From Flavobacteriaceae bacterium (lineage in GTDB: Bacteria; Bacteroidota; Bacteroidia; Flavobacteriales; Flavobacteriaceae), in contig OZ245049.1 of NCBI GenBank assembly GCA_965224465.1, positions 690,001-722,000 of the forward strand: a stretch of 32,000 nt of DNA. The letters are read 5' to 3'. A model generated the notes under the pieces. That model did no database searches. It was not told the DNA's origin and was given only the letters and a program-made list of their open reading frames with translations. Numbering within the stretch: the stretch's first letter is position 1; every line of letters starts with the position of its first letter. Shown here piece by piece: positions 15,896 to 32,000 of this stretch. A program made the position numbers and the translations under genes.

Positions 15896-15960
15896 AGGGG
15901 GTGCTGTGCATTTTGAGATTTTACTGGGCTACCTTTCTAATTCATTGATATACTTAACTT

Positions 15961-18540
15961 TTAGTTGCCCACTAACAGGGCTGGGCTACTGTGGTTTACT
16001 GGTTCACTGCGGAGAGCCTCCGCTGGCGTATTTTCTTTTCTTATATCTTCCAAAGCCTTATCTAATGCTGTTTCTATACTGTTTTTTAAGTTTTCGTATT
16101 CTTCTGTATTCAATAACTCATACTCGTAACCTCTTGCTCTGTTACCTCCAATTACACTTAAATATCCATATCTGTTTAAGTCTGATAAATGCCTGTTTAA
16201 TGTGGTTGGTGCAAAACGATATGCCTTTCTAATTTCTTTACTGTAAAAACTCTTTTTTTGATATTTAGATAAATACCCTTTAAGTAATTCCAAAAAATCT
16301 CGACACGCTTTTGTTAGTTCATCACTTTTAGCTAATAGTACCGTTTTTAATAGCTTATTGGCTTGTTCTATATCTTCTAAAGTCGTTTCGATATAATAGT
16401 TTCCTTGTTCGTCTTTTTTACGCTCTCGCTGGTATTGATGATAAAATGTTACCGTTTCTATAAAGCTTAAATAATGGGTGTTGGTTCTTAATGGTTTAAA
16501 AACTGTTTCGGGAATATTTAATAGTGTAGCGTAGGGATTTACAACTTTTACTTTCTCTAACAACCATTGTACATCTTTCAAAAATTCCCTGGCGTTATTC
16601 TCTTCTTGCTTGTTGATTTTTCCTGCTGAACTATTTTGTTGATAGCTCATAATTCCCTCTTTTTGTTCTTTTGAATTGTCTAAATAAATGAGTAAACTTC
16701 TGTTGGCATTATCTTCATAAATCTTTTCTTTGGTGGTTGTTCCTGCTAAACAAATTGGTCCTTCTACGGTTAGGGTCACGGTTTTTAGGTTTCCTTTGGC
16801 ATCTTTTATAGGAATAGTTTTACTTATTTTTCGTTTACTCATTAGCTCTCTTATAGCATACAGAATTTTATCATCTTGTGCTCCGTCCAGATCCTCAATT
16901 AGAACTAATTTATTTTTCAGTTCTGTTCTATCAAAATAGTATAAAGCATTTTCGGATAATGCTGTAATTTCTAATTTATGTTCTTCTGGTATCAGGTCTG
17001 ATATTTTTTCTTGTAGGTAGGTTTTCCCTGTTCCACTTGCTCCAAGACTTATAATGTGTAGCGGTTGTTCTCTTAATCTGCTCGTAAAAACCAAATACAT
17101 TAACAAACGATTATCAAACTCTCCAACCATTCCCGTTTTCCCGATTAAATCATTTGTGTTTTGTAGTAAATTCTCTCCTTTTAAGAACTCAATTGCCTTT
17201 TGTTTTCTTAGCTCTGTTAGTTCCCTTAATTTCTTCTTTTGTGGCTTCTGTGAATCAACTTGTCTTAACCTGTAATCTTCTAATAAATTAATCAACTCAA
17301 AAAGGGTGCTTTGTATTTCTCGTGTTCCTAACTCTAACCTTTCGGCTACTTTTCTTATAAATTTCTCCGTTGCATCATCATTGTATAAATCTAAATTACT
17401 TTGTCTAATGTTGTAGATTGGACTTGGATTATCTGTTCTTGTTATTCGTAAGGTTACTTTTAGCTTATCTAAACTGAATAGGTTTATTCCACCTAAAACG
17501 GCTACTAAAATATTGTTGTTTTGATATGTTATGTATTCTGAATTTGTAACATCTAAATTATTGCCTGCAGGTGCTACCTGCTCTGTTATAAATTCAGTTT
17601 CTGAACCAAATAAATTTATTCTTTCATTTATTAAATGCTCTAATATTTCGGAACTATGACTAATTACCAAACTATTTATATCTTCTCCTTGCGGACAATT
17701 AATTTTACTTATTGATAAATTATTGAGTAGTTGGTTTAGTGTTTTAGAATGTTCTTGTATTGCTTTTTCACCTGCTTCATCTCCATCAAAGAAAAATATC
17801 ACTTCTTGTAAATTCTCTATTCTTTTAATCGCCTCCAAGTGCAACTTGGTAAATCCATTTGTTCCATATAAAGCAAGTGTTTCATAGTTGGTATATTTCT
17901 GAAGTGTAGCACTATCAATTATACTTTCTGTAAGGATTATTACTTGTGTTTCTGCAGGTGGATATTTCGGATACAATCCTTTTCTGTTAGCTGTATAATA
18001 ATGCGTTCCTGTTTTGGCTATATTTCTGCCGTAGAGACTTACTATCTCGTTTTGCTCATTTTTGAGTGGGTAAACAATACAGTTTTTGAGTTGTTTAAAT
18101 TGAGTACCATTATTATACCCTTGCTCTAACTTTACATCATAGATTCCTCTTTCTTCTAAATAGGCAATTGCTTTTTTACTTCTGTGTAGGCTTTGTTTGA
18201 ATTTTGGAAATAGCTCTTCAAAATTTACATTCTCTATCTTTTCAAGTTTAGAAGTGCTCGTAATTTTTAATTCATCATTCGTAATTGACAAAAGGCTTTT
18301 CGCCTTTTGTATTGCTTTGTGTTTTGTACATTTCTCAAAATCTTGAATAAACTGTATTACATCTCCTGTTTTATCACAACCAAAACAAGTGTAAGTATTC
18401 GTTTCTGGGTAAATTCTTAAACTTGGTTTATCGTCTTTATGGAAAGGACACAAACAATGCTTGTTTTTATTCATTACAACACTGTACTCGTTTAGTACTG
18501 TAACTATGCTTAATTGCTCTTTAATTTGCTTGATTTCCAT
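15961..18540 (-). CDS. Primase-helicase-like replication protein (tail type 2)
   Basis: ORF track, 859 aa, same domain motifs. Variable linker after the Zn finger. Extra C-terminal residues encoded by a GCGGAG-AGC-CTCCGC hairpin-forming insert. Confidence 0.9.
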   Translation of the reverse strand: MEIKQIKEQLSIVTVLNEYSVVMNKNKHCLCPFHKDDKPSLRIYPETNTYTCFGCDKTGDVIQFIQDFEKCTKHKAIQKAKSLLSITNDELKITSTSKLEKIENVNFEELFPKFKQSLHRSKKAIAYLEERGIYDVKLEQGYNNGTQFKQLKNCIVYPLKNEQNEIVSLYGRNIAKTGTHYYTANRKGLYPKYPPAETQVIILTESIIDSATLQKYTNYETLALYGTNGFTKLHLEAIKRIENLQEVIFFFDGDEAGEKAIQEHSKTLNQLLNNLSISKINCPQGEDINSLVISHSSEILEHLINERINLFGSETEFITEQVAPAGNNLDVTNSEYITYQNNNILVAVLGGINLFSLDKLKVTLRITRTDNPSPIYNIRQSNLDLYNDDATEKFIRKVAERLELGTREIQSTLFELINLLEDYRLRQVDSQKPQKKKLRELTELRKQKAIEFLKGENLLQNTNDLIGKTGMVGEFDNRLLMYLVFTSRLREQPLHIISLGASGTGKTYLQEKISDLIPEEHKLEITALSENALYYFDRTELKNKLVLIEDLDGAQDDKILYAIRELMSKRKISKTIPIKDAKGNLKTVTLTVEGPICLAGTTTKEKIYEDNANRSLLIYLDNSKEQKEGIMSYQQNSSAGKINKQEENNAREFLKDVQWLLEKVKVVNPYATLLNIPETVFKPLRTNTHYLSFIETVTFYHQYQRERKKDEQGNYYIETTLEDIEQANKLLKTVLLAKSDELTKACRDFLELLKGYLSKYQKKSFYSKEIRKAYRFAPTTLNRHLSDLNRYGYLSVIGGNRARGYEYELLNTEEYENLKNSIETALDKALEDIRKENTPAEALRSEPVNHSSPALLVGN

Positions 18541-18574
18541 ACTCTAAAATATTTGGTTGTTAATTTCAACACCA

Positions 18575-18582
18575 CAAATATA
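18575..18582 (-). promoter_or_regulatory. Candidate -7 box (TATATTTG on the minus strand) for the primase operon
   Basis: Matches TAnnTTTG, about 34 nt upstream of the primase ATG (18540). Confidence 0.4.
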
Positions 18583-18655
18583 AAATATAGTTTCGATAAT
18601 AAAAACATAAATGTTTTTTAAATCAATACATTTTTGATAATATTTCTATTTAAGC

Positions 18656-18663
18656 TACTTTTG
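18656..18663 (+). promoter_or_regulatory. Candidate -7 box (TACTTTTG) for the XRE gene
   Basis: Matches TAnnTTTG only 4 nt before ATG 18668, which would imply a leaderless or near-leaderless mRNA. Confidence 0.4.
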
Positions 18664-18667
18664 TGTT

Positions 18668-19033
18668 ATGGATTTAGCAGAAAACATTAAAGCAATTAGA
18701 GAAGAAAAGGGTTTAAAACAGATTGAAGTAGCTGATTATATTGGTGTTGATAAATCCGCTTATAGTAAAATTGAAAAAGGTTCTCGTTCTTTGGCTATTG
18801 AGGAACTTCAAAAAATGGCACAGCTCTTTAATCTGACTACTGACCAAATTCTTAACTATGATGGTAACATACCTAAAGAGGTAACCATTGAAGATAAAAC
18901 CGCAGTAGAGCAAATGAGGTTGATACAAGAATTAGATGAAGAGGATAAACAAACTGTCTTTAAAATAATTGATAAGATGCTTACTACTAAGAAATTTAAA
19001 GACTTCTTTAATAAAAATGTAGCTACGCTTTGA
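18668..19033 (+). CDS. XRE/Cro-C1-type HTH regulator
   Basis: ORF track, 121 aa (IREEKGLKQIEVADYIGVDKSAYSKIEKGSR). Divergent from the primase gene. Confidence 0.85.
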   Translation: MDLAENIKAIREEKGLKQIEVADYIGVDKSAYSKIEKGSRSLAIEELQKMAQLFNLTTDQILNYDGNIPKEVTIEDKTAVEQMRLIQELDEEDKQTVFKIIDKMLTTKKFKDFFNKNVATL

Positions 19034-19129
19034 TTTTTATTTAGAATAAATATAAATTAAGTGTTTCTTACGATACAGTAAATATGCCTTATAGGTAGCA
19101 AATGTGCTATATAGGTGTCAAAGTTATTT

Positions 19130-19570
19130 TTAAGATAATTCGTTAAAGGAATTTTCATCTATAATAGTTTTTCCATCAACAAGAAGTAGCGCATTCAAAT
19201 GATTTGCCATTTTAAAAAAAATGTTTAAATCTTCTAATTTAGGAGTTCGTTCAAAATTTATACTTATCCAATTATTCCTTGAACTAAATCCTACATTAAT
19301 ATCATAATACCCTTTTTTGTCATTAAACTCAGCATAACAACTAACCTTATTTAAACTACCTAAAACACGCTCTCTGAAACCTTCTGGAACATTATCTATA
19401 TCCTTTAGTATTTCTATGCCATCTTTAGTATTTTCTTTCCAAATAAACTCACTCAAATGACTCTCAACAAAATCTACCCATTTTTCATAGTTTAAGGGTA
19501 ATGACTGAGTAAATACATCATCAATTGTGTTTATTGCTATTCTTAAATCTGTATTTCGGCTTAGTTTCAT
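19130..19570 (-). CDS. Putative immunity protein (family not recognised)
   Basis: ORF track, 146 aa. Its ATG overlaps the toxin stop by 1 nt (TAATG). No signal peptide visible. The call rests on position. Confidence 0.55.
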   Translation of the reverse strand: MKLSRNTDLRIAINTIDDVFTQSLPLNYEKWVDFVESHLSEFIWKENTKDGIEILKDIDNVPEGFRERVLGSLNKVSCYAEFNDKKGYYDINVGFSSRNNWISINFERTPKLEDLNIFFKMANHLNALLLVDGKTIIDENSFNELS

Positions 19571-20226
19571 TAGTTTATAAAATCTTCAAGTGCTTTAATT
19601 TCAAAAGTTATATCAGGATCAACTGTATTAAGTTTATTCATCCATTCCGTTTTCAATGTTGGCGTTATACTGGCTTTAGGCATATAGACATCAATTTTAG
19701 CATTTGTAATAAACATTGTTTTCCCATTGCTCACGAGACCTGTTGAAGGGTCTAGACCTTCTTTTAGAAATTTAATATTTTTCTGCATTGGTGCTGACGC
19801 TAACCAAGTATCAACATTTGTTGAAATAGTCGTTTTCATAGAAACAGCTGTATTTGCAAAAATTTGATTTGCTGTTTCTGTCCCTTTGTAAAAATCGATT
19901 CCTTTAAAGTTAAATGATATATCTCCTGTATGAAGCCACCCAGATGATTTAGTGTAACGATATTGTCCCATTACATCTTCAAAGAAACTTCTACCACCTA
20001 ACATATCAGGTATAGGATATTTCGTTTTCCAAATATCGTCTATGTGTTTAAGCTTATCAGATAAGGACTTGCTAATGAAGCCAGCCAAATCATCCACCGA
20101 GTTAGCCAATTCTTCAACACTATTACTACTTTTTTCAGTTGAAAAAAAAGTATCGTTTGCACTTAAATTTAGTGTCGAAAAAACACTAAGTACAACTAAT
20201 AGGAATATTTTAAATTGATTACTCAC
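19570..20226 (-). CDS. Secreted polymorphic toxin, body type C (possible PD-(D/E)xK-like nuclease)
   Basis: The ORF track gives 19570-20235 (TTG). GTG at 20226 is preferred by alignment with the paralogues. Shared leader. The body has GGRSFFEDV...GIDFY...AVSMKT, read by eye as E...D...SxK; the nuclease call is weak. Confidence 0.65.
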   Translation of the reverse strand: MSNQFKIFLLVVLSVFSTLNLSANDTFFSTEKSSNSVEELANSVDDLAGFISKSLSDKLKHIDDIWKTKYPIPDMLGGRSFFEDVMGQYRYTKSSGWLHTGDISFNFKGIDFYKGTETANQIFANTAVSMKTTISTNVDTWLASAPMQKNIKFLKEGLDPSTGLVSNGKTMFITNAKIDVYMPKASITPTLKTEWMNKLNTVDPDITFEIKALEDFIN

Positions 20227-20816
20227 AGATGACAAAGGTAACAGTTTTCTTAGTTTTTCTTTTTCTTCAATTGAAAAAAAAACTAAGGCTTGATTTTTTT
20301 ATAATTATTGCCTTGTCGAAATGTTGATTTTAAAACTAATGTTCTTGGCAATGATTATGAAAAAATGAGCATCCAAAGGGGTTTGGGGAATGGAAGATTC
20401 CCCATATAAATAAATCCTGCGTAGCAGACCTATTTTTTTAGTGTGTCGGCAAGTGTGGTGGATGTGTGGCTATTTTGCATAATACCAGTTATAATGACAT
20501 TTTTTTCAATTGAAAAGAAAATAATCAACTCGAAAAATGTGCGAAGCGAACTTATAACTTGTATTATGTAACTTAGCTTGGGGTTTAATTTTTTGGCATT
20601 GCTTTTTGTTCTGTGCGGTGGGGTAGCTGTTTGGTGTTGGCTTTTTTTATTTTCAAAAAAAACAATAACAAAGTGCTACTTGTGGAATGGCTTACAAAAA
20701 CTATGACAAAAAATTAAACAGAAGGGATGGCGAGCGGAACAAAAGGAAACACAAAGGCTTTTTGCTTTTTCTGCAAAAATTTGGGTTTACTTTTGTGGGG
20801 ATTTGTGCGGTGGATT
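20102..20816 (-). repeat. Leader + junction region, allele B (duplicate)
   Basis: Same as 13439-14153 at +6663. Palindromes at 20130-20149, 20266-20275 and 20505-20514. Hairpin at 20385-20403. Confidence 0.8.
20478..20568. repeat. Same 17-bp inverted repeat (duplicate of 13815-13905)
   Basis: Offset 6663. Confidence 0.75.
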
Positions 20817-21698
20817 TTATCCCAATGGATGAAACATTTCTATCTGTTTACTAAGGTTTTTCATATCCTTATTTCGGTACTTTTCTATATTCCCAACATT
20901 TTTATAGCCACTTAAATATTGTGTTTTTCTTAATCCATATAAATCTATCCAAATACCTATTCTTGATTGTTTGAGCTGGGTTAGTCTTTTGATATTTAGT
21001 GCTGGATTTTGTTCTCTAATTGTTTTTACTAATGCTTTTAATTGTTCGTGCACCCTCTGTTCTTTATTGACATTTGGATGAAATAGTTTTTCGCTTTCTT
21101 CTAAACTTACTTTTCCATTTCTTCCTATTCCTCTAAAGTTGGTTATGTAATCGTGTAATGGTATTATCTGATTGGCTTCTAATTTTACTACTCTACTATT
21201 TTTTCTTCTGATTCCTCCAGGTACTTTTATAATTCCTTTTTCTAAATCTAAATCGTCTAATTCTAAATTCATTAAATCTTGCTTGTCTAATGCTTGAAAA
21301 AGCATTAATCCTAATAGTAATTTATTGCTGTATTTAAAATAACCGTGTTTGGTCTTATCTTGATAATTGGTATAGATTTCTTGTAGTTCCTTTTCTGTTA
21401 ATAGTATGATTTGTTCTTGTGCTACTCCTCTTAATCTTACATTTAAAGCAATATTATCTATCCTTAAAAAATGGTAATAATGTTCTATTGCTCTAAGGGT
21501 TGTATTGATACTTGTTTTTGATTTCTCTTGATTCTGTAAATGTCCTATGTAGTTTAATAGTTGATTGTATTTTATGGTTTTTAGGGTTAGTTTATTAAGT
21601 TTTAACCAAATTGTAAAAAGTCCTATTCGCATTATAAAACCTTTGATACATTTCTCACTGTAATATCTATCAATTAACCATTTTCTGTATTCTTCCAT
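20817..21698 (-). CDS. Second, divergent tyrosine-recombinase-like protein (293-aa type), duplicate copy
   Basis: Translation identical to 14154-15035 (offset 6663). Confidence 0.8.
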   Translation of the reverse strand: MEEYRKWLIDRYYSEKCIKGFIMRIGLFTIWLKLNKLTLKTIKYNQLLNYIGHLQNQEKSKTSINTTLRAIEHYYHFLRIDNIALNVRLRGVAQEQIILLTEKELQEIYTNYQDKTKHGYFKYSNKLLLGLMLFQALDKQDLMNLELDDLDLEKGIIKVPGGIRRKNSRVVKLEANQIIPLHDYITNFRGIGRNGKVSLEESEKLFHPNVNKEQRVHEQLKALVKTIREQNPALNIKRLTQLKQSRIGIWIDLYGLRKTQYLSGYKNVGNIEKYRNKDMKNLSKQIEMFHPLG

Positions 21699-22525
21699 TC
21701 CTCCAATATGTGCGTGTAAATCTGTGTACTATCCAACCTTTTATGACCTAAAAAATTACCGATATATTCTAACTCCATTCCTTGCTGTAAAAGATGTGTT
21801 GCAATGCTATGTCTTAAACTGTGTAGACTTGCTTTTTTAGTAATATTGGCTTTATTCATTAACTTCTTTAATCTGCTGTTTAAATATTGTCCTGTTACTT
21901 GTGGTTTTGTTTTTCCAACTAATAAATAGTTACTTTCTGTATTGATTATCTCCCTTGCAAACTCAACATATTCTTTTAAATCTGCTATTACTTTTTGAGA
22001 CATTGGAACATATCTACTTTGATAATTCTTACTTGGTTTTATGTACAATAATCCTTTGTTATAGTCTATTTCTTTAGGTTCTAAATTAATGCCTTCTTTA
22101 CTTCTTAATCCACAACCATAGTAGATACTTAGCATTGCTTTATCAAATAAACCACTCGGACTGTGCCCATCAATTGAAGAAAAAAGTTGTTGTATTTCTA
22201 ATTGATTAAAGATTACTTTTTCTGTTTTTATTTCTCTTTCTACTATAATTTTATTGACTGCTAATTTCTGTTTTTTGGTCTTTTCTAAAAAGGCACTGTA
22301 TCTATTTATTACGTTAATATGACCTTGTATATATTGTCTACTGGCTTTAGTTTGATGTAGGTCTTTTATGAAGTTTTCTATCTCTTTTTGATTAGGCTTT
22401 CTTTGGTTTAAATACTTGAAAAAATTAGCTAATAATCTTACATATCCTTTGATGGTGCTTTCTGCATAACCCAATCTTATCAACCAATTCTCAAAGTTTT
22501 CTAATTCTTCTTTTAAGTTTATCAT
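21674..22525 (-). CDS. Tyrosine recombinase/integrase, module 4 (duplicate of module 3)
   Basis: Translation identical to 15011-15862. Confidence 0.9.
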   Translation of the reverse strand: MINLKEELENFENWLIRLGYAESTIKGYVRLLANFFKYLNQRKPNQKEIENFIKDLHQTKASRQYIQGHINVINRYSAFLEKTKKQKLAVNKIIVEREIKTEKVIFNQLEIQQLFSSIDGHSPSGLFDKAMLSIYYGCGLRSKEGINLEPKEIDYNKGLLYIKPSKNYQSRYVPMSQKVIADLKEYVEFAREIINTESNYLLVGKTKPQVTGQYLNSRLKKLMNKANITKKASLHSLRHSIATHLLQQGMELEYIGNFLGHKRLDSTQIYTHILEEWKNTENG

Positions 22526-22543
22526 CTTGTTTTGTAATTGGGT

Positions 22544-22558
22544 GTCGAACCTTTCGAC
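22544..22558 (-). other. Hairpin (duplicate of 15881-15895)
   Basis: Offset 6663. Confidence 0.5.
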
Positions 22559-22623
22559 AGGGGGTGCTGTGCATTTTGAGATTTTACTGGGCTACCTTTC
22601 TAATTCATTGATATACTTAACTT

Positions 22624-25203
22624 TTAGTTGCCCACTAACAGGGCTGGGCTACTGTGGTTTACTGGTTCACTGCGGAGAGCCTCCGCTGGCGTATTTTCTT
22701 TTCTTATATCTTCCAAAGCCTTATCTAATGCTGTTTCTATACTGTTTTTTAAGTTTTCGTATTCTTCTGTATTCAATAACTCATACTCGTAACCTCTTGC
22801 TCTGTTACCTCCAATTACACTTAAATATCCATATCTGTTTAAGTCTGATAAATGCCTGTTTAATGTGGTTGGTGCAAAACGATATGCCTTTCTAATTTCT
22901 TTACTGTAAAAACTCTTTTTTTGATATTTAGATAAATACCCTTTAAGTAATTCCAAAAAATCTCGACACGCTTTTGTTAGTTCATCACTTTTAGCTAATA
23001 GTACCGTTTTTAATAGCTTATTGGCTTGTTCTATATCTTCTAAAGTCGTTTCGATATAATAGTTTCCTTGTTCGTCTTTTTTACGCTCTCGCTGGTATTG
23101 ATGATAAAATGTTACCGTTTCTATAAAGCTTAAATAATGGGTGTTGGTTCTTAATGGTTTAAAAACTGTTTCGGGAATATTTAATAGTGTAGCGTAGGGA
23201 TTTACAACTTTTACTTTCTCTAACAACCATTGTACATCTTTCAAAAATTCCCTGGCGTTATTCTCTTCTTGCTTGTTGATTTTTCCTGCTGAACTATTTT
23301 GTTGATAGCTCATAATTCCCTCTTTTTGTTCTTTTGAATTGTCTAAATAAATGAGTAAACTTCTGTTGGCATTATCTTCATAAATCTTTTCTTTGGTGGT
23401 TGTTCCTGCTAAACAAATTGGTCCTTCTACGGTTAGGGTCACGGTTTTTAGGTTTCCTTTGGCATCTTTTATAGGAATAGTTTTACTTATTTTTCGTTTA
23501 CTCATTAGCTCTCTTATAGCATACAGAATTTTATCATCTTGTGCTCCGTCCAGATCCTCAATTAGAACTAATTTATTTTTCAGTTCTGTTCTATCAAAAT
23601 AGTATAAAGCATTTTCGGATAATGCTGTAATTTCTAATTTATGTTCTTCTGGTATCAGGTCTGATATTTTTTCTTGTAGGTAGGTTTTCCCTGTTCCACT
23701 TGCTCCAAGACTTATAATGTGTAGCGGTTGTTCTCTTAATCTGCTCGTAAAAACCAAATACATTAACAAACGATTATCAAACTCTCCAACCATTCCCGTT
23801 TTCCCGATTAAATCATTTGTGTTTTGTAGTAAATTCTCTCCTTTTAAGAACTCAATTGCCTTTTGTTTTCTTAGCTCTGTTAGTTCCCTTAATTTCTTCT
23901 TTTGTGGCTTCTGTGAATCAACTTGTCTTAACCTGTAATCTTCTAATAAATTAATCAACTCAAAAAGGGTGCTTTGTATTTCTCGTGTTCCTAACTCTAA
24001 CCTTTCGGCTACTTTTCTTATAAATTTCTCCGTTGCATCATCATTGTATAAATCTAAATTACTTTGTCTAATGTTGTAGATTGGACTTGGATTATCTGTT
24101 CTTGTTATTCGTAAGGTTACTTTTAGCTTATCTAAACTGAATAGGTTTATTCCACCTAAAACGGCTACTAAAATATTGTTGTTTTGATATGTTATGTATT
24201 CTGAATTTGTAACATCTAAATTATTGCCTGCAGGTGCTACCTGCTCTGTTATAAATTCAGTTTCTGAACCAAATAAATTTATTCTTTCATTTATTAAATG
24301 CTCTAATATTTCGGAACTATGACTAATTACCAAACTATTTATATCTTCTCCTTGCGGACAATTAATTTTACTTATTGATAAATTATTGAGTAGTTGGTTT
24401 AGTGTTTTAGAATGTTCTTGTATTGCTTTTTCACCTGCTTCATCTCCATCAAAGAAAAATATCACTTCTTGTAAATTCTCTATTCTTTTAATCGCCTCCA
24501 AGTGCAACTTGGTAAATCCATTTGTTCCATATAAAGCAAGTGTTTCATAGTTGGTATATTTCTGAAGTGTAGCACTATCAATTATACTTTCTGTAAGGAT
24601 TATTACTTGTGTTTCTGCAGGTGGATATTTCGGATACAATCCTTTTCTGTTAGCTGTATAATAATGCGTTCCTGTTTTGGCTATATTTCTGCCGTAGAGA
24701 CTTACTATCTCGTTTTGCTCATTTTTGAGTGGGTAAACAATACAGTTTTTGAGTTGTTTAAATTGAGTACCATTATTATACCCTTGCTCTAACTTTACAT
24801 CATAGATTCCTCTTTCTTCTAAATAGGCAATTGCTTTTTTACTTCTGTGTAGGCTTTGTTTGAATTTTGGAAATAGCTCTTCAAAATTTACATTCTCTAT
24901 CTTTTCAAGTTTAGAAGTGCTCGTAATTTTTAATTCATCATTCGTAATTGACAAAAGGCTTTTCGCCTTTTGTATTGCTTTGTGTTTTGTACATTTCTCA
25001 AAATCTTGAATAAACTGTATTACATCTCCTGTTTTATCACAACCAAAACAAGTGTAAGTATTCGTTTCTGGGTAAATTCTTAAACTTGGTTTATCGTCTT
25101 TATGGAAAGGACACAAACAATGCTTGTTTTTATTCATTACAACACTGTACTCGTTTAGTACTGTAACTATGCTTAATTGCTCTTTAATTTGCTTGATTTC
25201 CAT
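22624..25203 (-). CDS. Primase-helicase-like replication protein (duplicate of module 3)
   Basis: Translation identical to 15961-18540. Confidence 0.9.
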   Translation of the reverse strand: MEIKQIKEQLSIVTVLNEYSVVMNKNKHCLCPFHKDDKPSLRIYPETNTYTCFGCDKTGDVIQFIQDFEKCTKHKAIQKAKSLLSITNDELKITSTSKLEKIENVNFEELFPKFKQSLHRSKKAIAYLEERGIYDVKLEQGYNNGTQFKQLKNCIVYPLKNEQNEIVSLYGRNIAKTGTHYYTANRKGLYPKYPPAETQVIILTESIIDSATLQKYTNYETLALYGTNGFTKLHLEAIKRIENLQEVIFFFDGDEAGEKAIQEHSKTLNQLLNNLSISKINCPQGEDINSLVISHSSEILEHLINERINLFGSETEFITEQVAPAGNNLDVTNSEYITYQNNNILVAVLGGINLFSLDKLKVTLRITRTDNPSPIYNIRQSNLDLYNDDATEKFIRKVAERLELGTREIQSTLFELINLLEDYRLRQVDSQKPQKKKLRELTELRKQKAIEFLKGENLLQNTNDLIGKTGMVGEFDNRLLMYLVFTSRLREQPLHIISLGASGTGKTYLQEKISDLIPEEHKLEITALSENALYYFDRTELKNKLVLIEDLDGAQDDKILYAIRELMSKRKISKTIPIKDAKGNLKTVTLTVEGPICLAGTTTKEKIYEDNANRSLLIYLDNSKEQKEGIMSYQQNSSAGKINKQEENNAREFLKDVQWLLEKVKVVNPYATLLNIPETVFKPLRTNTHYLSFIETVTFYHQYQRERKKDEQGNYYIETTLEDIEQANKLLKTVLLAKSDELTKACRDFLELLKGYLSKYQKKSFYSKEIRKAYRFAPTTLNRHLSDLNRYGYLSVIGGNRARGYEYELLNTEEYENLKNSIETALDKALEDIRKENTPAEALRSEPVNHSSPALLVGN

Positions 25204-25237
25204 ACTCTAAAATATTTGGTTGTTAATTTCAACACCA

Positions 25238-25245
25238 CAAATATA
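25238..25245 (-). promoter_or_regulatory. Candidate -7 box (duplicate of 18575-18582)
   Basis: Offset 6663. Confidence 0.4.
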
Positions 25246-25318
25246 AAATATAGTTTCGATAATAAAAACATAAATGTTTTTTAAATCAATACATTTTTGA
25301 TAATATTTCTATTTAAGC

Positions 25319-25326
25319 TACTTTTG
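25319..25326 (+). promoter_or_regulatory. Candidate -7 box (duplicate of 18656-18663)
   Basis: Offset 6663. Confidence 0.4.
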
Positions 25327-25330
25327 TGTT

Positions 25331-25696
25331 ATGGATTTAGCAGAAAACATTAAAGCAATTAGAGAAGAAAAGGGTTTAAAACAGATTGAAGTAGCTGATT
25401 ATATTGGTGTTGATAAATCCGCTTATAGTAAAATTGAAAAAGGTTCTCGTTCTTTGGCTATTGAGGAACTTCAAAAAATGGCACAGCTCTTTAATCTGAC
25501 TACTGACCAAATTCTTAACTATGATGGTAACATACCTAAAGAGGTAACCATTGAAGATAAAACCGCAGTAGAGCAAATGAGGTTGATACAAGAATTAGAT
25601 GAAGAGGATAAACAAACTGTCTTTAAAATAATTGATAAGATGCTTACTACTAAGAAATTTAAAGACTTCTTTAATAAAAATGTAGCTACGCTTTGA
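25331..25696 (+). CDS. XRE/Cro-C1-type HTH regulator (duplicate)
   Basis: Translation identical to 18668-19033. Confidence 0.85.
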   Translation: MDLAENIKAIREEKGLKQIEVADYIGVDKSAYSKIEKGSRSLAIEELQKMAQLFNLTTDQILNYDGNIPKEVTIEDKTAVEQMRLIQELDEEDKQTVFKIIDKMLTTKKFKDFFNKNVATL

Positions 25697-25792
25697 TTTT
25701 TATTTAGAATAAATATAAATTAAGTGTTTCTTACGATACAGTAAATATGCCTTATAGGTAGCAAATGTGCTATATAGGTGTCAAAGTTATTT

Positions 25793-26233
25793 TTAAGATA
25801 ATTCGTTAAAGGAATTTTCATCTATAATAGTTTTTCCATCAACAAGAAGTAGCGCATTCAAATGATTTGCCATTTTAAAAAAAATGTTTAAATCTTCTAA
25901 TTTAGGAGTTCGTTCAAAATTTATACTTATCCAATTATTCCTTGAACTAAATCCTACATTAATATCATAATACCCTTTTTTGTCATTAAACTCAGCATAA
26001 CAACTAACCTTATTTAAACTACCTAAAACACGCTCTCTGAAACCTTCTGGAACATTATCTATATCCTTTAGTATTTCTATGCCATCTTTAGTATTTTCTT
26101 TCCAAATAAACTCACTCAAATGACTCTCAACAAAATCTACCCATTTTTCATAGTTTAAGGGTAATGACTGAGTAAATACATCATCAATTGTGTTTATTGC
26201 TATTCTTAAATCTGTATTTCGGCTTAGTTTCAT
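25793..26233 (-). CDS. Putative immunity protein (duplicate)
   Basis: Translation identical to 19130-19570. Confidence 0.55.
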   Translation of the reverse strand: MKLSRNTDLRIAINTIDDVFTQSLPLNYEKWVDFVESHLSEFIWKENTKDGIEILKDIDNVPEGFRERVLGSLNKVSCYAEFNDKKGYYDINVGFSSRNNWISINFERTPKLEDLNIFFKMANHLNALLLVDGKTIIDENSFNELS

Positions 26234-26889
26234 TAGTTTATAAAATCTTCAAGTGCTTTAATTTCAAAAGTTATATCAGGATCAACTGTATTAAGTTTAT
26301 TCATCCATTCCGTTTTCAATGTTGGCGTTATACTGGCTTTAGGCATATAGACATCAATTTTAGCATTTGTAATAAACATTGTTTTCCCATTGCTCACGAG
26401 ACCTGTTGAAGGGTCTAGACCTTCTTTTAGAAATTTAATATTTTTCTGCATTGGTGCTGACGCTAACCAAGTATCAACATTTGTTGAAATAGTCGTTTTC
26501 ATAGAAACAGCTGTATTTGCAAAAATTTGATTTGCTGTTTCTGTCCCTTTGTAAAAATCGATTCCTTTAAAGTTAAATGATATATCTCCTGTATGAAGCC
26601 ACCCAGATGATTTAGTGTAACGATATTGTCCCATTACATCTTCAAAGAAACTTCTACCACCTAACATATCAGGTATAGGATATTTCGTTTTCCAAATATC
26701 GTCTATGTGTTTAAGCTTATCAGATAAGGACTTGCTAATGAAGCCAGCCAAATCATCCACCGTATTAGCCAATTCGTCAACACTATCACTACTTTTTTCA
26801 ATTGAAAAAAAAGTGTCGTTTGCACTCAAATTTAGTGTCGAAAAAACACTAAGTACAACTAATAGAAATATTTTAAATTGATTACTCAC
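26233..26889 (-). CDS. Secreted polymorphic toxin, body type C behind a different leader allele
   Basis: The body is identical to 19570-20226 up to ..VDDLAGF. The leader differs (FFSIEKSSDSVDELANT vs FFSTEKSSNSVEELANS). ORF-track entry 26233-27027 is trimmed to the conserved GTG at 26889. Confidence 0.65.
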   Translation of the reverse strand: MSNQFKIFLLVVLSVFSTLNLSANDTFFSIEKSSDSVDELANTVDDLAGFISKSLSDKLKHIDDIWKTKYPIPDMLGGRSFFEDVMGQYRYTKSSGWLHTGDISFNFKGIDFYKGTETANQIFANTAVSMKTTISTNVDTWLASAPMQKNIKFLKEGLDPSTGLVSNGKTMFITNAKIDVYMPKASITPTLKTEWMNKLNTVDPDITFEIKALEDFIN

Positions 26890-27496
26890 AGATGACAAAG
26901 GTAACAGTTTTCTTAGTTTTTCTTTTTCTTCAATTGAAAAAAAATAAACGCAAGATTTTAAGGCTTGATTTTTTGTAATTAATGCCTTGTCGAATTTTTT
27001 GTTTTTTAGAAGAATGCTTCTTGGCATTGATTACAAAAAATGAGCATCCAAAGGGGTTTGGGGAATGGAAGATTCCCCATATAAATCAATCCTGCGTAGC
27101 AGACTTATTATTTTTTTGTGCGGTGGGGAATGGTGGAAGTGTGGCTATTTTGCATAATACCAGTTATAACGACCTTTTTTTTCAATTGAAAATCAATTAA
27201 TAAAGTCAAAAAAATGTGCGTAGCGAACTTATAACTTGTATTATGTTACTTAGCTTGGGGTGGTTTTTATGGCGGATTTTTTGCTTTTGTGCGGTGGCAC
27301 AGCTCTTTGGATTTTCTTTTTTTCAATTGAAAATAAAAACGATAAAAAAGAAAATACAATGTGCTGTTTTTGCGGTGGGTTGCAGAAAGTGTGACATAAA
27401 AACCACAGAAGGGTTGGCGTGCGGAACAACATAAAGCACAAAGGCTTTTTGCTTTTTCTGCAAAAGTTTGGGTTTTATGTTGTGGGGATTGGTCGG
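26765..27496 (-). repeat. Leader + junction region, allele D (chimeric; right part identical to allele A)
   Basis: Palindromes at 26793-26812 (inside the CDS), 26929-26938, 27181-27190 and 27322-27331. Hairpin at 27060-27078. GTGCGGTGG at 27118-27126 and 27289-27297, and TGCGGTGG at 27371-27378. Confidence 0.8.
27153..27245. repeat. Same 17-bp inverted repeat with a 59-nt loop (third loop allele, contains CAATTG)
   Basis: Arms at 27153-27169 and 27229-27245. Confidence 0.75.
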
Positions 27497-27775
27497 TTAT
27501 TTCTCTCCATAATGAGAATGTGCATTTAGTACATAAACTGTAACTATTTCTTCATTTATAGAATACACTAATCGGTGTTTATGGTTGATTCTTCTTGAAT
27601 ACAATCCTTTTAAATTATGTTTCAACATTTCGGGTTGTCCTGTTCCTGTTGTTGGGTGTTCCATTAATTCAGTTAATAATTTCTGTAACTTCTTTAAAAT
27701 TGATTTATCTCCTACTTTTTTATGTTTCTCAATATCTTCTAAAGCGGTTTTAGAAAATTCTAATTTATAACTCAT
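27497..27775 (-). CDS. yoeB: YoeB/Txe-family toxin (second copy)
   Basis: Translation identical to 6765-7043 (offset 20732). Confidence 0.88.
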   Translation of the reverse strand: MSYKLEFSKTALEDIEKHKKVGDKSILKKLQKLLTELMEHPTTGTGQPEMLKHNLKGLYSRRINHKHRLVYSINEEIVTVYVLNAHSHYGEK

Positions 27776-28023
27776 AAACCTAATAATTCACTTATTTCTT
27801 TAGGTGTAGAAATGGTTTTTGTTTCTCCATTTTGAACTTCTAAAACGCTTTGTTGAATACGTTCTATCATCTTTGCATTAAAGTACATATCGTTCTCACT
27901 AACAAGAGTTAATGCATACGATTTATCTTTCCCCCTTTGAACAATTATATACTCTCCTTTATCTACTCTTTCGAAGTATTCTTTTTGATTTTGTCTAAAT
28001 TCTCTACTGCTTATAACTAACAT
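27772..28023 (-). CDS. Phd/YefM-family antitoxin (second copy)
   Basis: Identical to 7040-7291. Trimmed to the internal ATG in the same way. Confidence 0.75.
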   Translation of the reverse strand: MLVISSREFRQNQKEYFERVDKGEYIIVQRGKDKSYALTLVSENDMYFNAKMIERIQQSVLEVQNGETKTISTPKEISELLGL

Positions 28024-28038
28024 AATATCATATTTTGT

Positions 28039-28053
28039 GTACCAATATGGTAC
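28039..28053. promoter_or_regulatory. Same palindrome, second copy
   Basis: Offset 20732 from 7307-7321. Confidence 0.55.
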
Positions 28054-28086
28054 AATATACAAATAAATAAGCAAAAAGTATTCCAT

Positions 28087-29028
28087 TTACCCTAAAGGAT
28101 GAAACATTTCTATTTGTTTACTCAAATTCTTCATGTCTTTATTACGGTACTTTTCTATATTTCCAACATTTTTATAACCGCTTAAATATTGGGTTTTTCT
28201 TAATCCAAATAAATCTATCCAAATGCCTATTCTTGATTGTTTGAGTTGAGTTAATCTTTTAATGTTTATTGTTGGATTCTGCTCCTTTATGGTTTTTACT
28301 AATACTTTTAATTGCTCGTGTAAGCGTTGTTCTTTGTTGCAGTTTGGATTGAACAGTTTTTCGCTTTGCTCTGTATTTGGCTTGTTGTTTCTACCTATCC
28401 CTCTAAAATCGGTAATATAATCGTGAAAAGGAATTATCTGATTTGCTTCTAATTTTACTGTTCTGCTGTTCTTTCTTCTTACTCCTCCTGGGACTTTTAT
28501 GATTCCTTTTTTTAGATCTAAATCTTCTAATTCTAAATTCATTAAATCTTGCTTGTCCAATGCTTGAAAAATCATTAACCCCAATAGTAGTTTATTGCTG
28601 TATTTAAAATATCCGTGTTTAGTTTTGTCTTGATAATTGGTGTAGATTTCTTGTAGTTCTTCTTCTGTTAATAAAATGATTTGCTCTTGTGCTACTCCTC
28701 TTAATCTTACATTTAAAGCAATGTTTTGTATTGCTTCTGTTGAGCTATTTAAAAGACGCTGTGCGTCTAAAAAGTGGTAATAATGTTCTATTGCTCTTAA
28801 AGTTGTATTGATACTTGTTTTTGATTTCTCTTGATTTTGTAAGTGTCCTATATAGTTTAATAACTGATTGTATTTTATCGTTTTCACGGTTAGTTTATTT
28901 AGCTGTAACCAAATTGTAAAAAGTCCTATTCTCATTATAAAATCCTTGATACATTTTTCGCTATAAAACCTATCTGTTAGCCATTTATCAAAGGCGAGAG
29001 GCTCGCTACCCAATTTATTATTTTTCAT
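28087..29028 (-). CDS. Second, divergent tyrosine-recombinase-like protein (313-aa type), third copy
   Basis: Translation identical to 7355-8296. Confidence 0.8.
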   Translation of the reverse strand: MKNNKLGSEPLAFDKWLTDRFYSEKCIKDFIMRIGLFTIWLQLNKLTVKTIKYNQLLNYIGHLQNQEKSKTSINTTLRAIEHYYHFLDAQRLLNSSTEAIQNIALNVRLRGVAQEQIILLTEEELQEIYTNYQDKTKHGYFKYSNKLLLGLMIFQALDKQDLMNLELEDLDLKKGIIKVPGGVRRKNSRTVKLEANQIIPFHDYITDFRGIGRNNKPNTEQSEKLFNPNCNKEQRLHEQLKVLVKTIKEQNPTINIKRLTQLKQSRIGIWIDLFGLRKTQYLSGYKNVGNIEKYRNKDMKNLSKQIEMFHPLG

Positions 29029-29881
29029 CCTGTATTAATTGGCTGTCTGCCTCAGACTCTTCAAGTATGTGCGTATAAATCTGTGTACTATCTAATCTTT
29101 TATGACCTAAAAAATTACCAATATATTCTAACTCCATTCCTTGCTGTAAAAGGTGTGTCGCTATACTGTGGCGTAAACTGTGCAGTGTTGCATTTTTATT
29201 AATGTTTGCCTTATTCATTAACTTCTTTAATCTACTGTTTAAATATTGACCTGTTACTTGTGGATTTGATTTCCCAACTAATAAATAGTTACTTTCTGTA
29301 TTGATTATCTCCCTTGCAAACTCAACATATTCTTTTAAATCTGCTATTACTTTTTTACTCATTGGAACGTATCTACTTTGATAATTCTTACTTGGTTTGA
29401 CATAAATTAATCCTTTGTTAAAGTCTAATTCTTTTGGTTCTAAATTAATACCTTCTTTACTTCTTAATCCACAACCATAGTAGATACTTAGCATTGCTTT
29501 ATCAAATAAACCACTCGGACTGTGCCCATCAATTGAAGAAAAAAGTTGTTGTATTTCTAATTGATTAAAGATTACTTTTTCTGTTTTTATTTCTCTTTCT
29601 ACTATAATTTTATTGACTGCTAATTTCTGTTTTTTGGTCTTTTCTAAAAAGGCACTGTATCTATTTATTACGTTAATATGACCTTGTATATATTGTCTAC
29701 TGGCTTTGGTTTGATGCAAGCCTTTTATAAACTCTTCTATCTCTTGTTGATTAGCTTTTCTTTGATTTAAGTACTTGAAAAAATTAGCTAATAACCTTAC
29801 ATATCCTTTGATGGTGCTTTCTGCATAGCCTAATCTAACTAACCAATTCTCAAAGTTTTCTAATTCTTCTTTTAAATTCAT
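29018..29881 (-). CDS. Tyrosine recombinase/integrase, module 5 (mosaic)
   Basis: ORF track, 287 aa. The C-terminal tail matches modules 1 and 2 (EESEADSQLIQDEK). The N-terminal two-thirds resemble modules 3 and 4 (EKVIFNQLEIQQLFSSIDGHSPSG). Confidence 0.9.
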   Translation of the reverse strand: MNLKEELENFENWLVRLGYAESTIKGYVRLLANFFKYLNQRKANQQEIEEFIKGLHQTKASRQYIQGHINVINRYSAFLEKTKKQKLAVNKIIVEREIKTEKVIFNQLEIQQLFSSIDGHSPSGLFDKAMLSIYYGCGLRSKEGINLEPKELDFNKGLIYVKPSKNYQSRYVPMSKKVIADLKEYVEFAREIINTESNYLLVGKSNPQVTGQYLNSRLKKLMNKANINKNATLHSLRHSIATHLLQQGMELEYIGNFLGHKRLDSTQIYTHILEESEADSQLIQDEK

Positions 29882-29924
29882 ATTTAAAATTTAGGGGGGT
29901 GCCTTGCGTTTTGAGATTTGTATT

Positions 29925-30008
29925 GAGGTACTGACTTAACTTACTGATAATCTTTTAGTTTAGTACCTCGCTAAGCTAACTGAGGCACTAATGAGGTACT
30001 GAGGTACT
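29925..30008. repeat. Same iteron-like cluster at the second type-1 primase gene
   Basis: GAGGTACT at 29925-29932, 29993-30000 and 30001-30008. Inverted copy AGTACCTC at 29962-29969. Variant GAGGCACT at 29982-29989. The hairpin is imperfect here. Confidence 0.55.
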
Positions 30009-32000
30009 CGATTTAATATCTTCAAGGGCTTTGTCTAAGGCATTTGTGATGTTATCTTTTAGATTTTGATACTCATCTTGATTAATTACCTCATACTCAA
30101 ATCCTGTGCTGTACTTGTTTCCGCCTATTATTTTGATGTAACCGTAACTTTGTAAATCATATAAATACCTGCTTAATGTTTTGGGGTTAATTCGCATTTT
30201 AGCACGTAATTCTTTAGCATAAAAACTTTGCCCATTTCCCTTTTTTAAGTGTGCTTTCAGCACTTCCAAAAAATCTCTACACGCTTTTGTCAACTCATCA
30301 CTTTTGGCAAGTAATACCGTTTTTAGTAGCTTATTAGCTTGTTCTATATCTTCCAATGTCGTTTCTATGTATTTTTCTCCAGTAGTTTCATTTATTTTTA
30401 TTTGCCTCTGCCGCTGGCAGTAAAATGTTACCGTTTCTATAAATGCTAAATAATGGGTGTTTGTTCTTAATGGCTTAAAAACTGTTTCGGGGATATTTAA
30501 TAGTGTAGCGTAGGGATTGACAACTTTTACTTTCTCTAATAACCATTGTACATCCTTTAAAAATTCCCTGGCATTATTTTCTTCTTGCTTGTTAATCTTT
30601 CCTGCCGATATGTTTTGCTGATAGCTCATAATTCCCTCTTTTTGTTGTTTACTGTTGTCTAAATAGATTAATAATGAACGGTTTGCATTGTCTTCATAAA
30701 TCTTTTCTTTGGTAGTTGTTCCTGCTAAACAAATTGGTCCTTCTACGGTTAGGGTTACTGTTTTTAGGTTTCCTTTTGCATCTTTTATAGGTATGGTTTT
30801 ACTTATTTTTCGTTTACTCATTAGTTCTCTTATAGCGTACAGTATCTTATCATCTTGTGCTCCATCCAAATCTTCAATTAATATCAATTTGTTTTTTAGT
30901 TCTGTTCTGTCAAAGTAGTAAAGTGCATTTTCTGATAGTGCGGTGATTTCTAATTTATGTTCTTCAGGGATTAAGTCTGCTATTTTTTCTTGTAGGTAAG
31001 TTTTTCCTGTGCCGCTTGCTCCAAGACTTATAATATGTAGCGGTTGTTCTCGTAATCTACTCGTAAAAACCAAATACATTAACAGCCGATTATCGACCTC
31101 TCCAACCATTCCCGTTTTACCGATTAAATCATTTGTCTTCCGGAGTAGATTTTCGCCTTTTAAAAAGGTAATTGCTTTTTGTTTTCTTAGCTCTGTTAAT
31201 TCTCTTTGTTTCTTTTTTTGTGGTTTTTGAGCATCAACTTGTCTTAATCTGTAATCTTCTAATCCGTTTATGAGTTCTGCTATTACGTATTGTATTTCTC
31301 GTGTTCCTAATTCTAATCTTTCTGCTACTTTTCTTGTAAATTTCTCTGTTGAATCATCATTGTATAAATCTAAATTACTTTGTCTGATATTATATATTGG
31401 ACTTGGATTATCTGTTCTTGTAATGCGTAAAGTAACTTTTAGCTTGTCTAAACTGAACAAGTTTATCCCACCTAAAACGGCTATTAAAATGTTGTTGTTT
31501 TGGTAAGTGATGTAATCTTGGTTTTCTGTGTTCAGCTCGTTACTTACTGGCTCTGCCTGCTCTGTTACAAATTCAGTTTCTGAACCAAATAGGTTTTCTC
31601 TTTCACTTATTAAATGTTCTAAAATTGTAGGTTCGTGGCTCTGTACTAAACTATTTATATCTTCTCCTTTCGGACAATTAATTTTACTTATTGATAGATT
31701 ATTGAATAGTTGGTTTAGTGTTTTAGAATGTTCTTGCACTGCTTTTTCTCCCGCTTCATCTCCATCAAAGAAAAGTACAACTTCTTTTAAATTTTCTAAT
31801 TTTAATAATGCTTGCTTGTGTTCTTCAGTAAAGCCATTTGTTCCATATAAAGCAAGTGTTTCAAAGTTGGTGTATTTCTGAAGTGTGGCACTATCGATTA
31901 TACTTTCTGTTAAAATGATTACTTGCGTTTCTTTGTTTGGGTATTTTGGATAAAGTCCTTTTCTGTTAGCTGTATAGTAGTGCGTTCCTGTTTTGGCTAT
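29988..32000 (-). CDS. Primase-helicase-like replication protein (tail type 1), 5' end beyond the window
   Basis: The ORF track starts at an internal GTG (31739). My translation of 31740-32000 in the same frame is open and reads IAKTGTHYYTANRKGLYPKYPNKETQVIILTESIIDSATLQKYTNFETLALYGTNGFTEEHKQALLKLENLKEVVLFFDGDEAGEKAVQEHS, colinear with the other copies. The gene therefore continues past nt 32000. Confidence 0.88.
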   Translation of the reverse strand: MAKTGTHYYTANRKGLYPKYPNKETQVIILTESIIDSATLQKYTNFETLALYGTNGFTEEHKQALLKLENLKEVVLFFDGDEAGEKAVQEHSKTLNQLFNNLSISKINCPKGEDINSLVQSHEPTILEHLISERENLFGSETEFVTEQAEPVSNELNTENQDYITYQNNNILIAVLGGINLFSLDKLKVTLRITRTDNPSPIYNIRQSNLDLYNDDSTEKFTRKVAERLELGTREIQYVIAELINGLEDYRLRQVDAQKPQKKKQRELTELRKQKAITFLKGENLLRKTNDLIGKTGMVGEVDNRLLMYLVFTSRLREQPLHIISLGASGTGKTYLQEKIADLIPEEHKLEITALSENALYYFDRTELKNKLILIEDLDGAQDDKILYAIRELMSKRKISKTIPIKDAKGNLKTVTLTVEGPICLAGTTTKEKIYEDNANRSLLIYLDNSKQQKEGIMSYQQNISAGKINKQEENNAREFLKDVQWLLEKVKVVNPYATLLNIPETVFKPLRTNTHYLAFIETVTFYCQRQRQIKINETTGEKYIETTLEDIEQANKLLKTVLLAKSDELTKACRDFLEVLKAHLKKGNGQSFYAKELRAKMRINPKTLSRYLYDLQSYGYIKIIGGNKYSTGFEYEVINQDEYQNLKDNITNALDKALEDIKSSTSVPH

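Follow-up and report, generated by a model that had tools for sequence, protein, structure and literature searches.

A tandem array of small recombinase-encoding elements in a Flavobacteriaceae genome, with unit boundaries at an in-frame motif inside toxin genes

Four toxin genes in the genome of a Flavobacteriaceae bacterium (GCA_965224465.1, contig OZ245049.1, positions 690,001–722,000) begin with nearly the same leader and are unrelated after it. How did one leader come to precede different toxin bodies, and one body different leaders? The analysed stretch of 32,000 nt, hereafter the window (G+C content 31%; positions are numbered from its first base), contains at least five related units of 6.7–7.4 kb arranged head to tail, all transcribed from the minus strand. 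In the direction of transcription, a unit consists of the leader, the toxin body, an immunity gene, an XRE gene on the opposite strand, a primase-helicase gene, two recombinase genes (rec1 and rec2) and a non-coding junction of about 580 nt, followed by the next leader. Two of the units, A and D, additionally carry a Phd/YoeB pair. The best explanation of this arrangement, which we hold to be probable, is site-specific integration encoded by the elements themselves at an in-frame pre-toxin motif, with the leader of the element re-arming the toxin that it displaces.

The leader shared by the four genes is about 117 nt long and comprises a GTG start codon, a Sec-type signal peptide and a linker ending in ..EELAN. 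Its protein pattern, K-IFL[LI]VVLSVFSTLNLSA-NDTFFS[IT]EKSS...EELAN, was found in four minus-strand reading frames, with complete divergence after it, as the initial annotation of the locus had proposed. The GTG is conserved and is followed by a positively charged start, a hydrophobic core and a cleavage-like site between ..LSA and ND. The copy on which the present work centres, leader D (26757–26903, minus strand), includes a putative −7 promoter box TACCTTTG (26896–26903), the GTG (26887–26889), the signal peptide, a palindrome designated pal2, the linker SSDSVDE and the boundary motif. The box, TAnnTTTG located 7 nt upstream, agrees with the Bacteroidetes −7 promoter consensus. From these features, the leader would drive Sec export and the box would act as a promoter. 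Leader D is a distinct allele, as annotated, with CAATTG in place of CAACTG (CAGTTG on the plus strand) and SIEKSSDSVDE in place of STEKSSNSVEE.

Read on the plus strand, the shared sequence was said to begin with TTAGCCAATTC, and this was found at 6065, 13439, 20102 and 26765 only. A 17-nt motif, TTGGCTAANNNNGGGGG, lies across each of these edges. With up to two mismatches allowed, it occurs in the window at the four junctions only, with 0.25 occurrences expected by chance and none of 100 shuffles reaching four. Its copies, all on the minus strand, are TTGGCTAATACGGTGGA at 26756–26772 (L-A-N-T-V-D, between leader D and the body of unit C; the proposed recombination core), TTGGCTAACTCGGTGGA at 20093–20109 (between two identical units), TTGGCTAATACGGTGGG at 13430–13446 (between leader B and the WHH toxin body) and TTGGCTAACGCAGGGAG at 6056–6072 (between leader A and the body of unit 0). 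Every one of the four unit boundaries has a copy of the motif and the rest of the window has none, which is the distribution of an attachment (att) core. The copies are direct repeats and not in the inverted orientation of an inversion shufflon. The break was originally placed at EELAN itself; the edge is indeed sharp, but similarity persists for a few bases beyond EELAN (..AAY-NCG-GTGG) in three of the four junctions, and the N-terminal module is longer in some relatives, in which the break therefore lies beyond EELAN.

The exact unit is defined by units B and C, since positions 13439–20099 and 20102–26762 are identical base for base over 6661 nt. The two units form an exact tandem repeat, the limits of which coincide with the motif at the edge of leader and body, and one toxin body stands behind two leader alleles. 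Two identities reported earlier fall within this repeat, namely that of 13439–14153 with 20102–20816 and that of the bodies 19570–20099 and 26233–26762; in the case of the bodies, the two bases at the very edge differ (AG at 20100–20101, TA at 26763–26764). Among the units, the backbones are 80–91% identical to each other, and the segment from the primase start to EELAN, containing the regulator, immunity gene and toxin body, is unrelated from unit to unit. The middle junction between B and C has AAC-TCG (C-T) at its centre, and both outer junctions have AAT-ACG (T-A). Because the join at 20093–20109 lies between two identical units, it should be the native leader–body join of the B/C element. 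A native join flanked by two recombinant ones, with the variable centre lying between staggered cuts, fits this pattern. Unequal homologous crossing-over was considered as the origin of the duplication and was rejected, because it would give a middle junction that is a hybrid of the outer ones, and the centre observed is distinct.

Stretches with the leader pattern were found in genomes (6) and metagenomes (19); related loci are cited below by number, L001 and so on. In most of these stretches, ..GAAGAA-TTGG is followed by about 8 variable bases, GKGG and then unrelated sequence. What marks the edge in the related contigs is a DNA motif, TTGGCTAA-N4-GGKGG (L-A-N-x-G/V-G), with information content limited to about −9 to +19 around it. 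A further search, with TTGGCTRA-N4-GGKGG, showed that this DNA motif (L-A-[NEKQ]-x-[GV]-[GD]) also terminates N-terminal modules other than the leader. It ends a module of about 90 aa, named 'CNFSE', of second toxins carried within elements, as well as a leader with a 150-aa module in a Flavobacteriaceae metagenome-assembled genome (MAG), and it closes the N-terminal modules of two giant toxins, one of 1542 aa and one of 1470 aa that has an EndoU tip. The initial annotation described the locus as a 5' counterpart of C-terminal displacement. Because the motif also ends modules that are not leaders, the site is a pre-toxin motif rather than a leader-specific one, and the process is better described as C-terminal displacement itself.

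The sites were collected by a motif search, so the evidence lies in the sharpness of the break and in the matched flanks, not in the presence of the motif. Among 34 motif sites there are 32 pairs whose N-terminal sides are identical over at least 40 nt. Their first difference lies +4 to +22 from the start of the motif, mostly at +4 to +8, and identity drops from 100% to 0.27–0.65 past the break. In five pairs whose bodies are identical, the first difference is at −4 to +9. Similarity across related loci thus stops at a sharp edge and does not decay gradually. Two pairs illustrate exchange between modules: L025 and L016 share 1388 nt at 99.8%, from motif to motif, containing a body, an immunity gene and a CNFSE module, and L011 and L020 share 1163 nt at 98.8% from the first base of the motif, which is preceded by unrelated N-terminal modules, the leader in one locus and CNFSE in the other. 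Two leader alleles precede the same body in L010/L018 and in L016/L025, and at least seven different bodies follow a single leader allele in related metagenome samples, so that the independent assortment of leader and body inferred from the window extends to its relatives. The codons of the motif are always TTG, GCT and a G-rich glycine codon, in five unrelated N-terminal contexts, and in the genes of the window these codons account for only 12% of Leu, 27% of Ala and 13% of Gly. Since the motif always uses codons that are infrequent in window genes, this bias points to a constraint on the DNA and not on the peptide alone.

The ends of arrays in relatives were then compared with the model. At the upstream end of L004, the leader gene starts about 40 nt after the pdxA stop codon, with no element junction and no upstream copy of the palindrome pal1; its leader is fused to the body of the first element, and this body and its immunity gene are followed by an element remnant. 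At the downstream end, in the same MAG, a junction and leader precede a decayed body next to cydAB, and at the downstream end of L016 the last leader has a full body and immunity gene, followed by a second toxin pair and chromosomal genes. At the upstream ends of L025 and L014, a giant chromosomal toxin bears element cargo as its C-terminus. An element-free leader–toxin gene, which the initial annotation had suggested looking for, was found in Psychroflexus tropicus (L009) as a locus of pal1, leader, motif, toxin and immunity gene with no backbone on either side. Judging from their sequences, the array ends fit the integration model proposed initially, and the resident partner need not be a leader gene. 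Two other candidates were rejected: the 7.1-kb contig L019 is an array unit rather than a circular element, since its ends differ after TTGG, and the terminal leader copy of L002 is not a clean att site, being followed by an apparent deleted toxin remnant.

Homologues of the primase with about 35% identity were found on plasmids of Aureispira sp. CCB-E (NZ_CP133672.1; loci L029 and L032) and Aureibacter tunicatorum (pAT2, NZ_AP025307.1; loci L030 and L031). On both plasmids, the order is a giant RHS protein, an immunity gene, a helix-turn-helix regulator, the primase, a recombinase, a second recombinase-like gene and a short RHS gene, after which the set is repeated; behind the second copy lie a different, displaced resident RHS tip with its immunity gene, and more orphans. 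The tandem copies are 100% identical over 5617 nt in Aureispira and 99.97% identical over 5693 nt in Aureibacter. The three joints have in common only TACGAG in Aureispira or TATGGATT, which encodes Y-G-F of the Rhs C-terminal core, in Aureibacter. Left of these 6–8-nt cores homology is absent, and divergence of the resident copy sets in directly after the core. The joints represent site-specific in-frame insertion into a toxin gene by the same backbone family, a habit thus not confined to the window.

Array anatomy, the exact unit boundary, the motif with its sharp breakpoints, the reassortment of N-terminal modules and bodies, the array ends and the distant relatives lead to the following model. 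The 147-nt region of leader D would be the downstream end module of a small integrative element, with a promoter-proximal GTG, a Sec-type signal peptide and a short linker ending in the in-frame 17-nt motif. In the circular element, the leader would be followed by the element's own toxin body, immunity gene, XRE, primase-helicase, rec1, rec2 and the junction, which leads back to the leader. The Xer-like recombinase pair would recombine the motif of the element with the same motif in a resident toxin gene. Such a gene may encode a giant polymorphic toxin or a CNFSE module, or it may be the leader gene of another element. Once the element has integrated, the incoming body would be attached to the resident N-terminal module and followed by the incoming immunity gene, and the displaced resident body would gain the promoter and leader of the element and so remain an expressed and exported small toxin. 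Repeated integration at the regenerated motif would give the tandem array. Every displaced body in the window has its own GTG start and signal-peptide leader and so is not a tip lacking a start or export signal.

The product of rec1 gave a Phage_integrase match (1.5e-35) and is Xer-like, with all catalytic residues aligning with XerD (R..HxxR..H..Y). Both rec1 and rec2 are Xer-like simple recombinases, and rec1 adjoins the junction region; together they would catalyse the exchange, probably within the variable motif centre of about 8 nt. The primase-helicase (850 aa) is a CHC2-Toprim primase fused to a P-loop helicase. In combination with the XRE gene it suggests regulated episomal replication, and a circular intermediate would replicate through it. 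The initial annotation had explained the locus by attP × attB recombination within the 5' end of a toxin gene. In this explanation, breakpoints inside the 17-nt motif and the array ends agree with what was found, and the catalysis by the recombinases and a circular attP are what we infer.

The alternative that survives best, and which we consider unlikely, is that only homologous recombination or gene conversion took place. The leader with EELAN would then be a conserved N-terminal module like VENN in CdiA, bodies would be swapped by RecA-type exchange, the elements would integrate via a different att site, and the sharp edge would be the end of homology. Conserved pre-toxin motifs and arrays of orphans are familiar from other toxin families (Rhs and contact-dependent inhibition (CDI) loci), and the leader and junction provide 130–700 nt of homology. 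In addition, as annotated, junction D is a mosaic with its own allele at 26765–27228, after which 27229–29095 is 100% identical to 6497–8363. This block of 1867 nt in units A and D covers the distal junction, Phd/YoeB and rec2. A second block, of 992 nt (1–992 and 7570–8561), is also 100% identical. Because these blocks lie inside units otherwise 76–96% identical, they indicate recent gene conversion between array members. What this alternative does not account for are identical bodies behind N-terminal modules with nothing in common upstream of the 17-nt motif, namely giant toxin and leader or CNFSE and leader. RecA-dependent exchange requires 20–30 nt of identity, so homologous recombination cannot join such partners by the 17 nt that they share. 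Moreover, the switch points are stacked at the 3' edge and not spread over the leader, the middle junction of B and C is no hybrid of its neighbours, and the joints of the plasmid relatives offer 6–8 nt of identity with no left-hand homology.

Less credible still is a crossover elsewhere, either at palindromes of the form T8-CAATTG-A6 or about 25 nt upstream of the GTG, with the leader belonging to the body that follows it and the EELAN edge being a domain boundary. The palindrome pal2 lies within the leader (26793–26812, codons FFSIEK; other copies at 20130–20149, 13467–13486 and 6093–6112) and pal1 lies upstream of the start codon (26923–26944; other copies at 20260–20282, 13597–13619 and 6223–6245), with more copies deeper in each junction. 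With three or four per junction, they have the arm-spacer-arm shape of simple tyrosine-recombinase sites. Homology ends directly after pal2 in several relatives, homology to the chromosome at L004 begins about 25 nt before the GTG, and that of L009 and L007 to the junction starts at the pal1 copy upstream of the start codon. A crossover at the motif makes B and C the same element twice, whereas a crossover at pal2 would leave them differing solely in the 32-nt linker (4 substitutions) and one at −25 would cluster their differences in the leader (about 8 substitutions), against zero in the other 6.5 kb; both positions were therefore rejected for the array of the window. Furthermore, linker alleles co-segregate with the signal peptide rather than with the body in L010/L018 and L016/L025, and bodies are shared between leader genes and the giant toxins, which have the motif but neither palindrome nor leader. 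Breaks after pal2 are accounted for by a longer N-terminal module, in which the motif lies further downstream (..KIKLKV followed by LAEAVG in L004). An assembly artefact, with the identical B and C units or the leader–body joins being mis-joins across repeats, would agree with the 100% identity of B and C and with the many metagenome contigs that end within the leader, an assembler trouble spot, but is very improbable given that the five units are distinct in cargo and backbone (80–91%) and so no collapsed repeat, that the same architecture occurs in independent MAGs, metagenomes and two finished plasmids also with two identical tandem copies, and that the 17-nt motif is below the assembler k-mer length and so gives no chimeras between unrelated N-terminal modules.

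Several observations weigh against site-specific integration at the motif. Homologous recombination is clearly active among the array members, as in the 1867-nt block, and signal-peptide and linker alleles also reassort across pal2. The T8-CAATTG-A6 palindromes look more like simple recombinase sites than the motif does; they do have the arm-spacer-arm shape, but do not coincide with the unit boundary. The motif has only about 13 specified bases and no dyad symmetry of the Xer/Cre kind, and it does not have the Xer/dif structure (a site of about 28 bp with two inverted 11-bp arms and a 6–8-bp centre). The active-site Arg-I of rec2 is absent in all family members checked (GLR replaced by ALD), including the homologues of L001 and of the Aureispira and Aureibacter plasmids, while the tyrosine is retained; this makes a classical four-strand exchange uncertain. 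It may be that rec2 is a non-catalytic or half-active partner of rec1 and, more speculatively, that only one strand pair is exchanged enzymatically. L025 is not reconcilable with one simple integration, since body X is present twice. No isogenic empty site was found among the related loci examined, no circular form or attP was recovered, viral contig collections had no match to the leader pattern or the primase, and phage records gave partial primase matches only. The ends of the window's own array lie outside the window, and the metagenome contigs are short and possibly chimeric across the 130-nt leader repeat.

The cargo of the array is that of polymorphic toxins. A variable C-terminal toxin stands behind a conserved N-terminal export module (four bodies, one leader), immunity genes adjoin the toxins, and bodies identical at the DNA level were found behind leader, CNFSE and giant modules. 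According to Pfam, the body of unit A is a WHH nuclease with an adjoining SUKH (SMI1-KNR4) immunity gene, and the toxin of unit 0 is followed by Imm49. The body of unit B matched no family; its homologues include a Hint-domain protein (P0011) and have other N-termini. Hint domains are typical of polymorphic toxins. The 146-aa gene after this body also matched no family; it is taken as the immunity gene only because of where it lies and because L002 has inherited it together with the toxin. In metagenome proteins, the same leader is linked to bodies that match toxin-domain Pfam families. No Rhs or CdiA domain was found in the proteins of the window or in either giant toxin (L025 and L014), and only the plasmid relatives lie in genes annotated as RHS.

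C-terminal displacement in Rhs and CdiA is the known system closest in outcome. There, too, tips are exchanged at a conserved in-frame motif, new tip–immunity pairs push older ones downstream and the same toxin domains occur behind different delivery modules; distant relatives of the backbone even lie inside Rhs genes. Unlike in those systems, successive tips are separated here by a full self-encoded element with regulator, primase-helicase and two recombinases, homologous recombination would need longer joints, and no Rhs or CdiA protein is present in the window. Displaced tips acquire a start codon, a signal peptide and probably a promoter, instead of being silent orphans. The mycoplasma vsa, vsp and vpma shufflons use Xer-like recombinases for inversion among silent bodies and one expression site. 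They resemble the present array in that a recombination site just past the signal-peptide region joins a leader to alternative bodies, and differ in that here the repeats are direct, no body lacks a leader of its own and what moves is an integrative element.

In the arrays of integrative and conjugative, integrative mobilizable and cis-mobilizable elements (ICE/IME-CIME) of streptococci, tandem accretion occurs at a regenerated att site located at the end of a housekeeping or tRNA gene, which is merely restored. Head-to-tail stacking by target regeneration and segment exchange via homologous recombination are common to both systems, whereas the att site here joins two functional toxin halves that are reshuffled in each event. 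Satellites of the P4-like and phage-inducible chromosomal island (PICI) types are generally known to be small and to have a divergent XRE-type regulator beside a primase-helicase and integrase module, as here. The present units differ in the absence of packaging or helper-exploitation genes, in having two Xer-like recombinases instead of one arm-binding integrase, in a target inside toxin genes and in the lack of a match in viral contig collections. Integrons and the integron-like rAID-1 immunity arrays of Bacteroidales (Ross et al., bioRxiv 10.1101/471110) likewise combine a XerD-like tyrosine recombinase with arrays of toxin-defence cassettes bounded by a short repeat, and the motif-to-motif segments are cassette-like. 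In contrast to these, the repeat here lies within coding sequence and yields an in-frame domain fusion, the cassettes carry toxins as well as immunity genes, and the units are autonomous, with their own recombinases. The rec1 protein is not of the IntI type, scoring 121 bits against the cut-off of 265 bits of TIGR02249 and 65 against 435 for PRK15417. An attC-like folded site was rejected: in ten windows of 65–81 nt around the motif, on both strands, the fold z-scores were −1.6 to +1.0 and no hairpin was common to them.

No description of this element family was found in literature searches; integrases near Rhs loci are mentioned only as a possibility in PMC5727410. Tip acquisition and the pile-up of orphans in polymorphic toxin loci have so far mostly been ascribed to homologous recombination. 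The element family described here would be a concrete and testable agent of 7 kb with its own recombinases and a defined 17-nt in-frame target, which would deliver a toxin–immunity pair, swap the resident tip and re-arm the displaced one. It would exemplify site-specific recombination that fuses protein domains in frame, and could possibly be reused as a tool. A broader proposal, which we advance tentatively, is a Bacteroidota-wide family of small self-replicating elements whose Xer-like pair, one member being degenerate, recombines in-frame motifs of toxin genes, i.e., a 'protein-domain integron'. If so, giant toxins, Rhs proteins and small leader toxins would share one cassette pool, in which any motif-bounded segment (toxin body, immunity gene and next N-terminal module) could be exchanged as a cassette, and the Flavobacteriia branch would have added the promoter and Sec leader that keep displaced toxins armed.

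The remaining features of the units are as follows, on the minus strand unless stated otherwise. Unit 0 (1–6064) is truncated by the window start and contains the toxin body (5479–6055), Imm49 (4703–5476), XRE (4328–4690, plus strand), primase-helicase (1651–4191) and rec1 (717–1574), with rec2 extending beyond the window start. In unit A (6065–13438), the WHH body (12754–13429), the SUKH gene (12308–12757, plus strand) and XRE (inside the reading frame 11770–12300, plus strand) are followed by primase-helicase (9247–11796), rec1 (8286–9149), rec2 (7355–8296), the Phd/YoeB genes (7040–7354 and 6765–7043), the junction and leader A. Unit B (13439–20101), the exact copy of unit C, carries the body (19570–20092), immunity gene (19130–19570), XRE (18668–19033, plus strand), primase-helicase (15961–18540), rec1 (15011–15862) and rec2 (14154–15035). 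The corresponding positions in unit C (20102–26764) are 26233–26755, 25793–26233, 25331–25696 (plus strand), 22624–25203, 21674–22525 and 20817–21698, after which its junction and leader C are located. Unit D (26765–32000), truncated by the window end, contains primase-helicase (29988–32000), rec1 (29018–29881), rec2 (28087–29028), Phd (27772–28086) and YoeB (27497–27775), with its junction and leader D downstream. The list of reading frames gave the impression that the unit D primase is disrupted, which was rejected, as the frame is open up to the window end.

The non-coding junction D (26890–27496) lies between the YoeB gene and leader D, and its equivalents are at 20227–20816, 13564–14153 and 6190–6764. 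An invariant hairpin, GGGGAAT-CTTCC-ATTCCCC, is present in every junction (27060–27078, 20385–20403, 13722–13740 and 6359–6377). It is embedded in a strongly conserved block of about 80 nt and also occurs in L001 and L002. The Rfam search gave no family above threshold anywhere in the window, the hairpin included. The perfect palindrome T4-9-CAATTG-A6-8 occurs in three to four copies per junction, e.g., at 27312–27333, 27175–27192 and 20500–20516; such palindromes may serve the primase-helicase as origin iterons or the recombinases as accessory sites.

The SUKH gene (12308–12757, plus strand) is located opposite the WHH toxin gene (12754–13572, minus strand) with a tail-to-tail overlap of 4 nt and is co-oriented with XRE; the SUKH homologue in L003 and L004 is co-oriented with the toxin. 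The Phd/YoeB type II toxin–antitoxin system (6765–7354 and 27497–28086) is positioned between rec2 and the junction, within the window in units A and D only, and was also found upstream of the leader in L008 and L010. In some relatives (L001 at 9621–9700, L005 and L012), the leader is followed by a second linker type, ..LIDAW.. (TTGATTGATGCGTGG), which also occurs within the large upstream toxin of L001. This linker agrees with the LANAV motif (TTGGCTAATGCGGTG) in 10 of 15 bases and is possibly a variant of the site. In addition, L028 contains three toxin–immunity pairs in one element (reverse strand; 114, 1243 and 2689). The second and third pairs stand behind CNFSE modules that are 90% identical over 254 nt, with homology ending at TTGGCTAA, and this looks like non-autonomous cassettes stacked within the cargo of an element.

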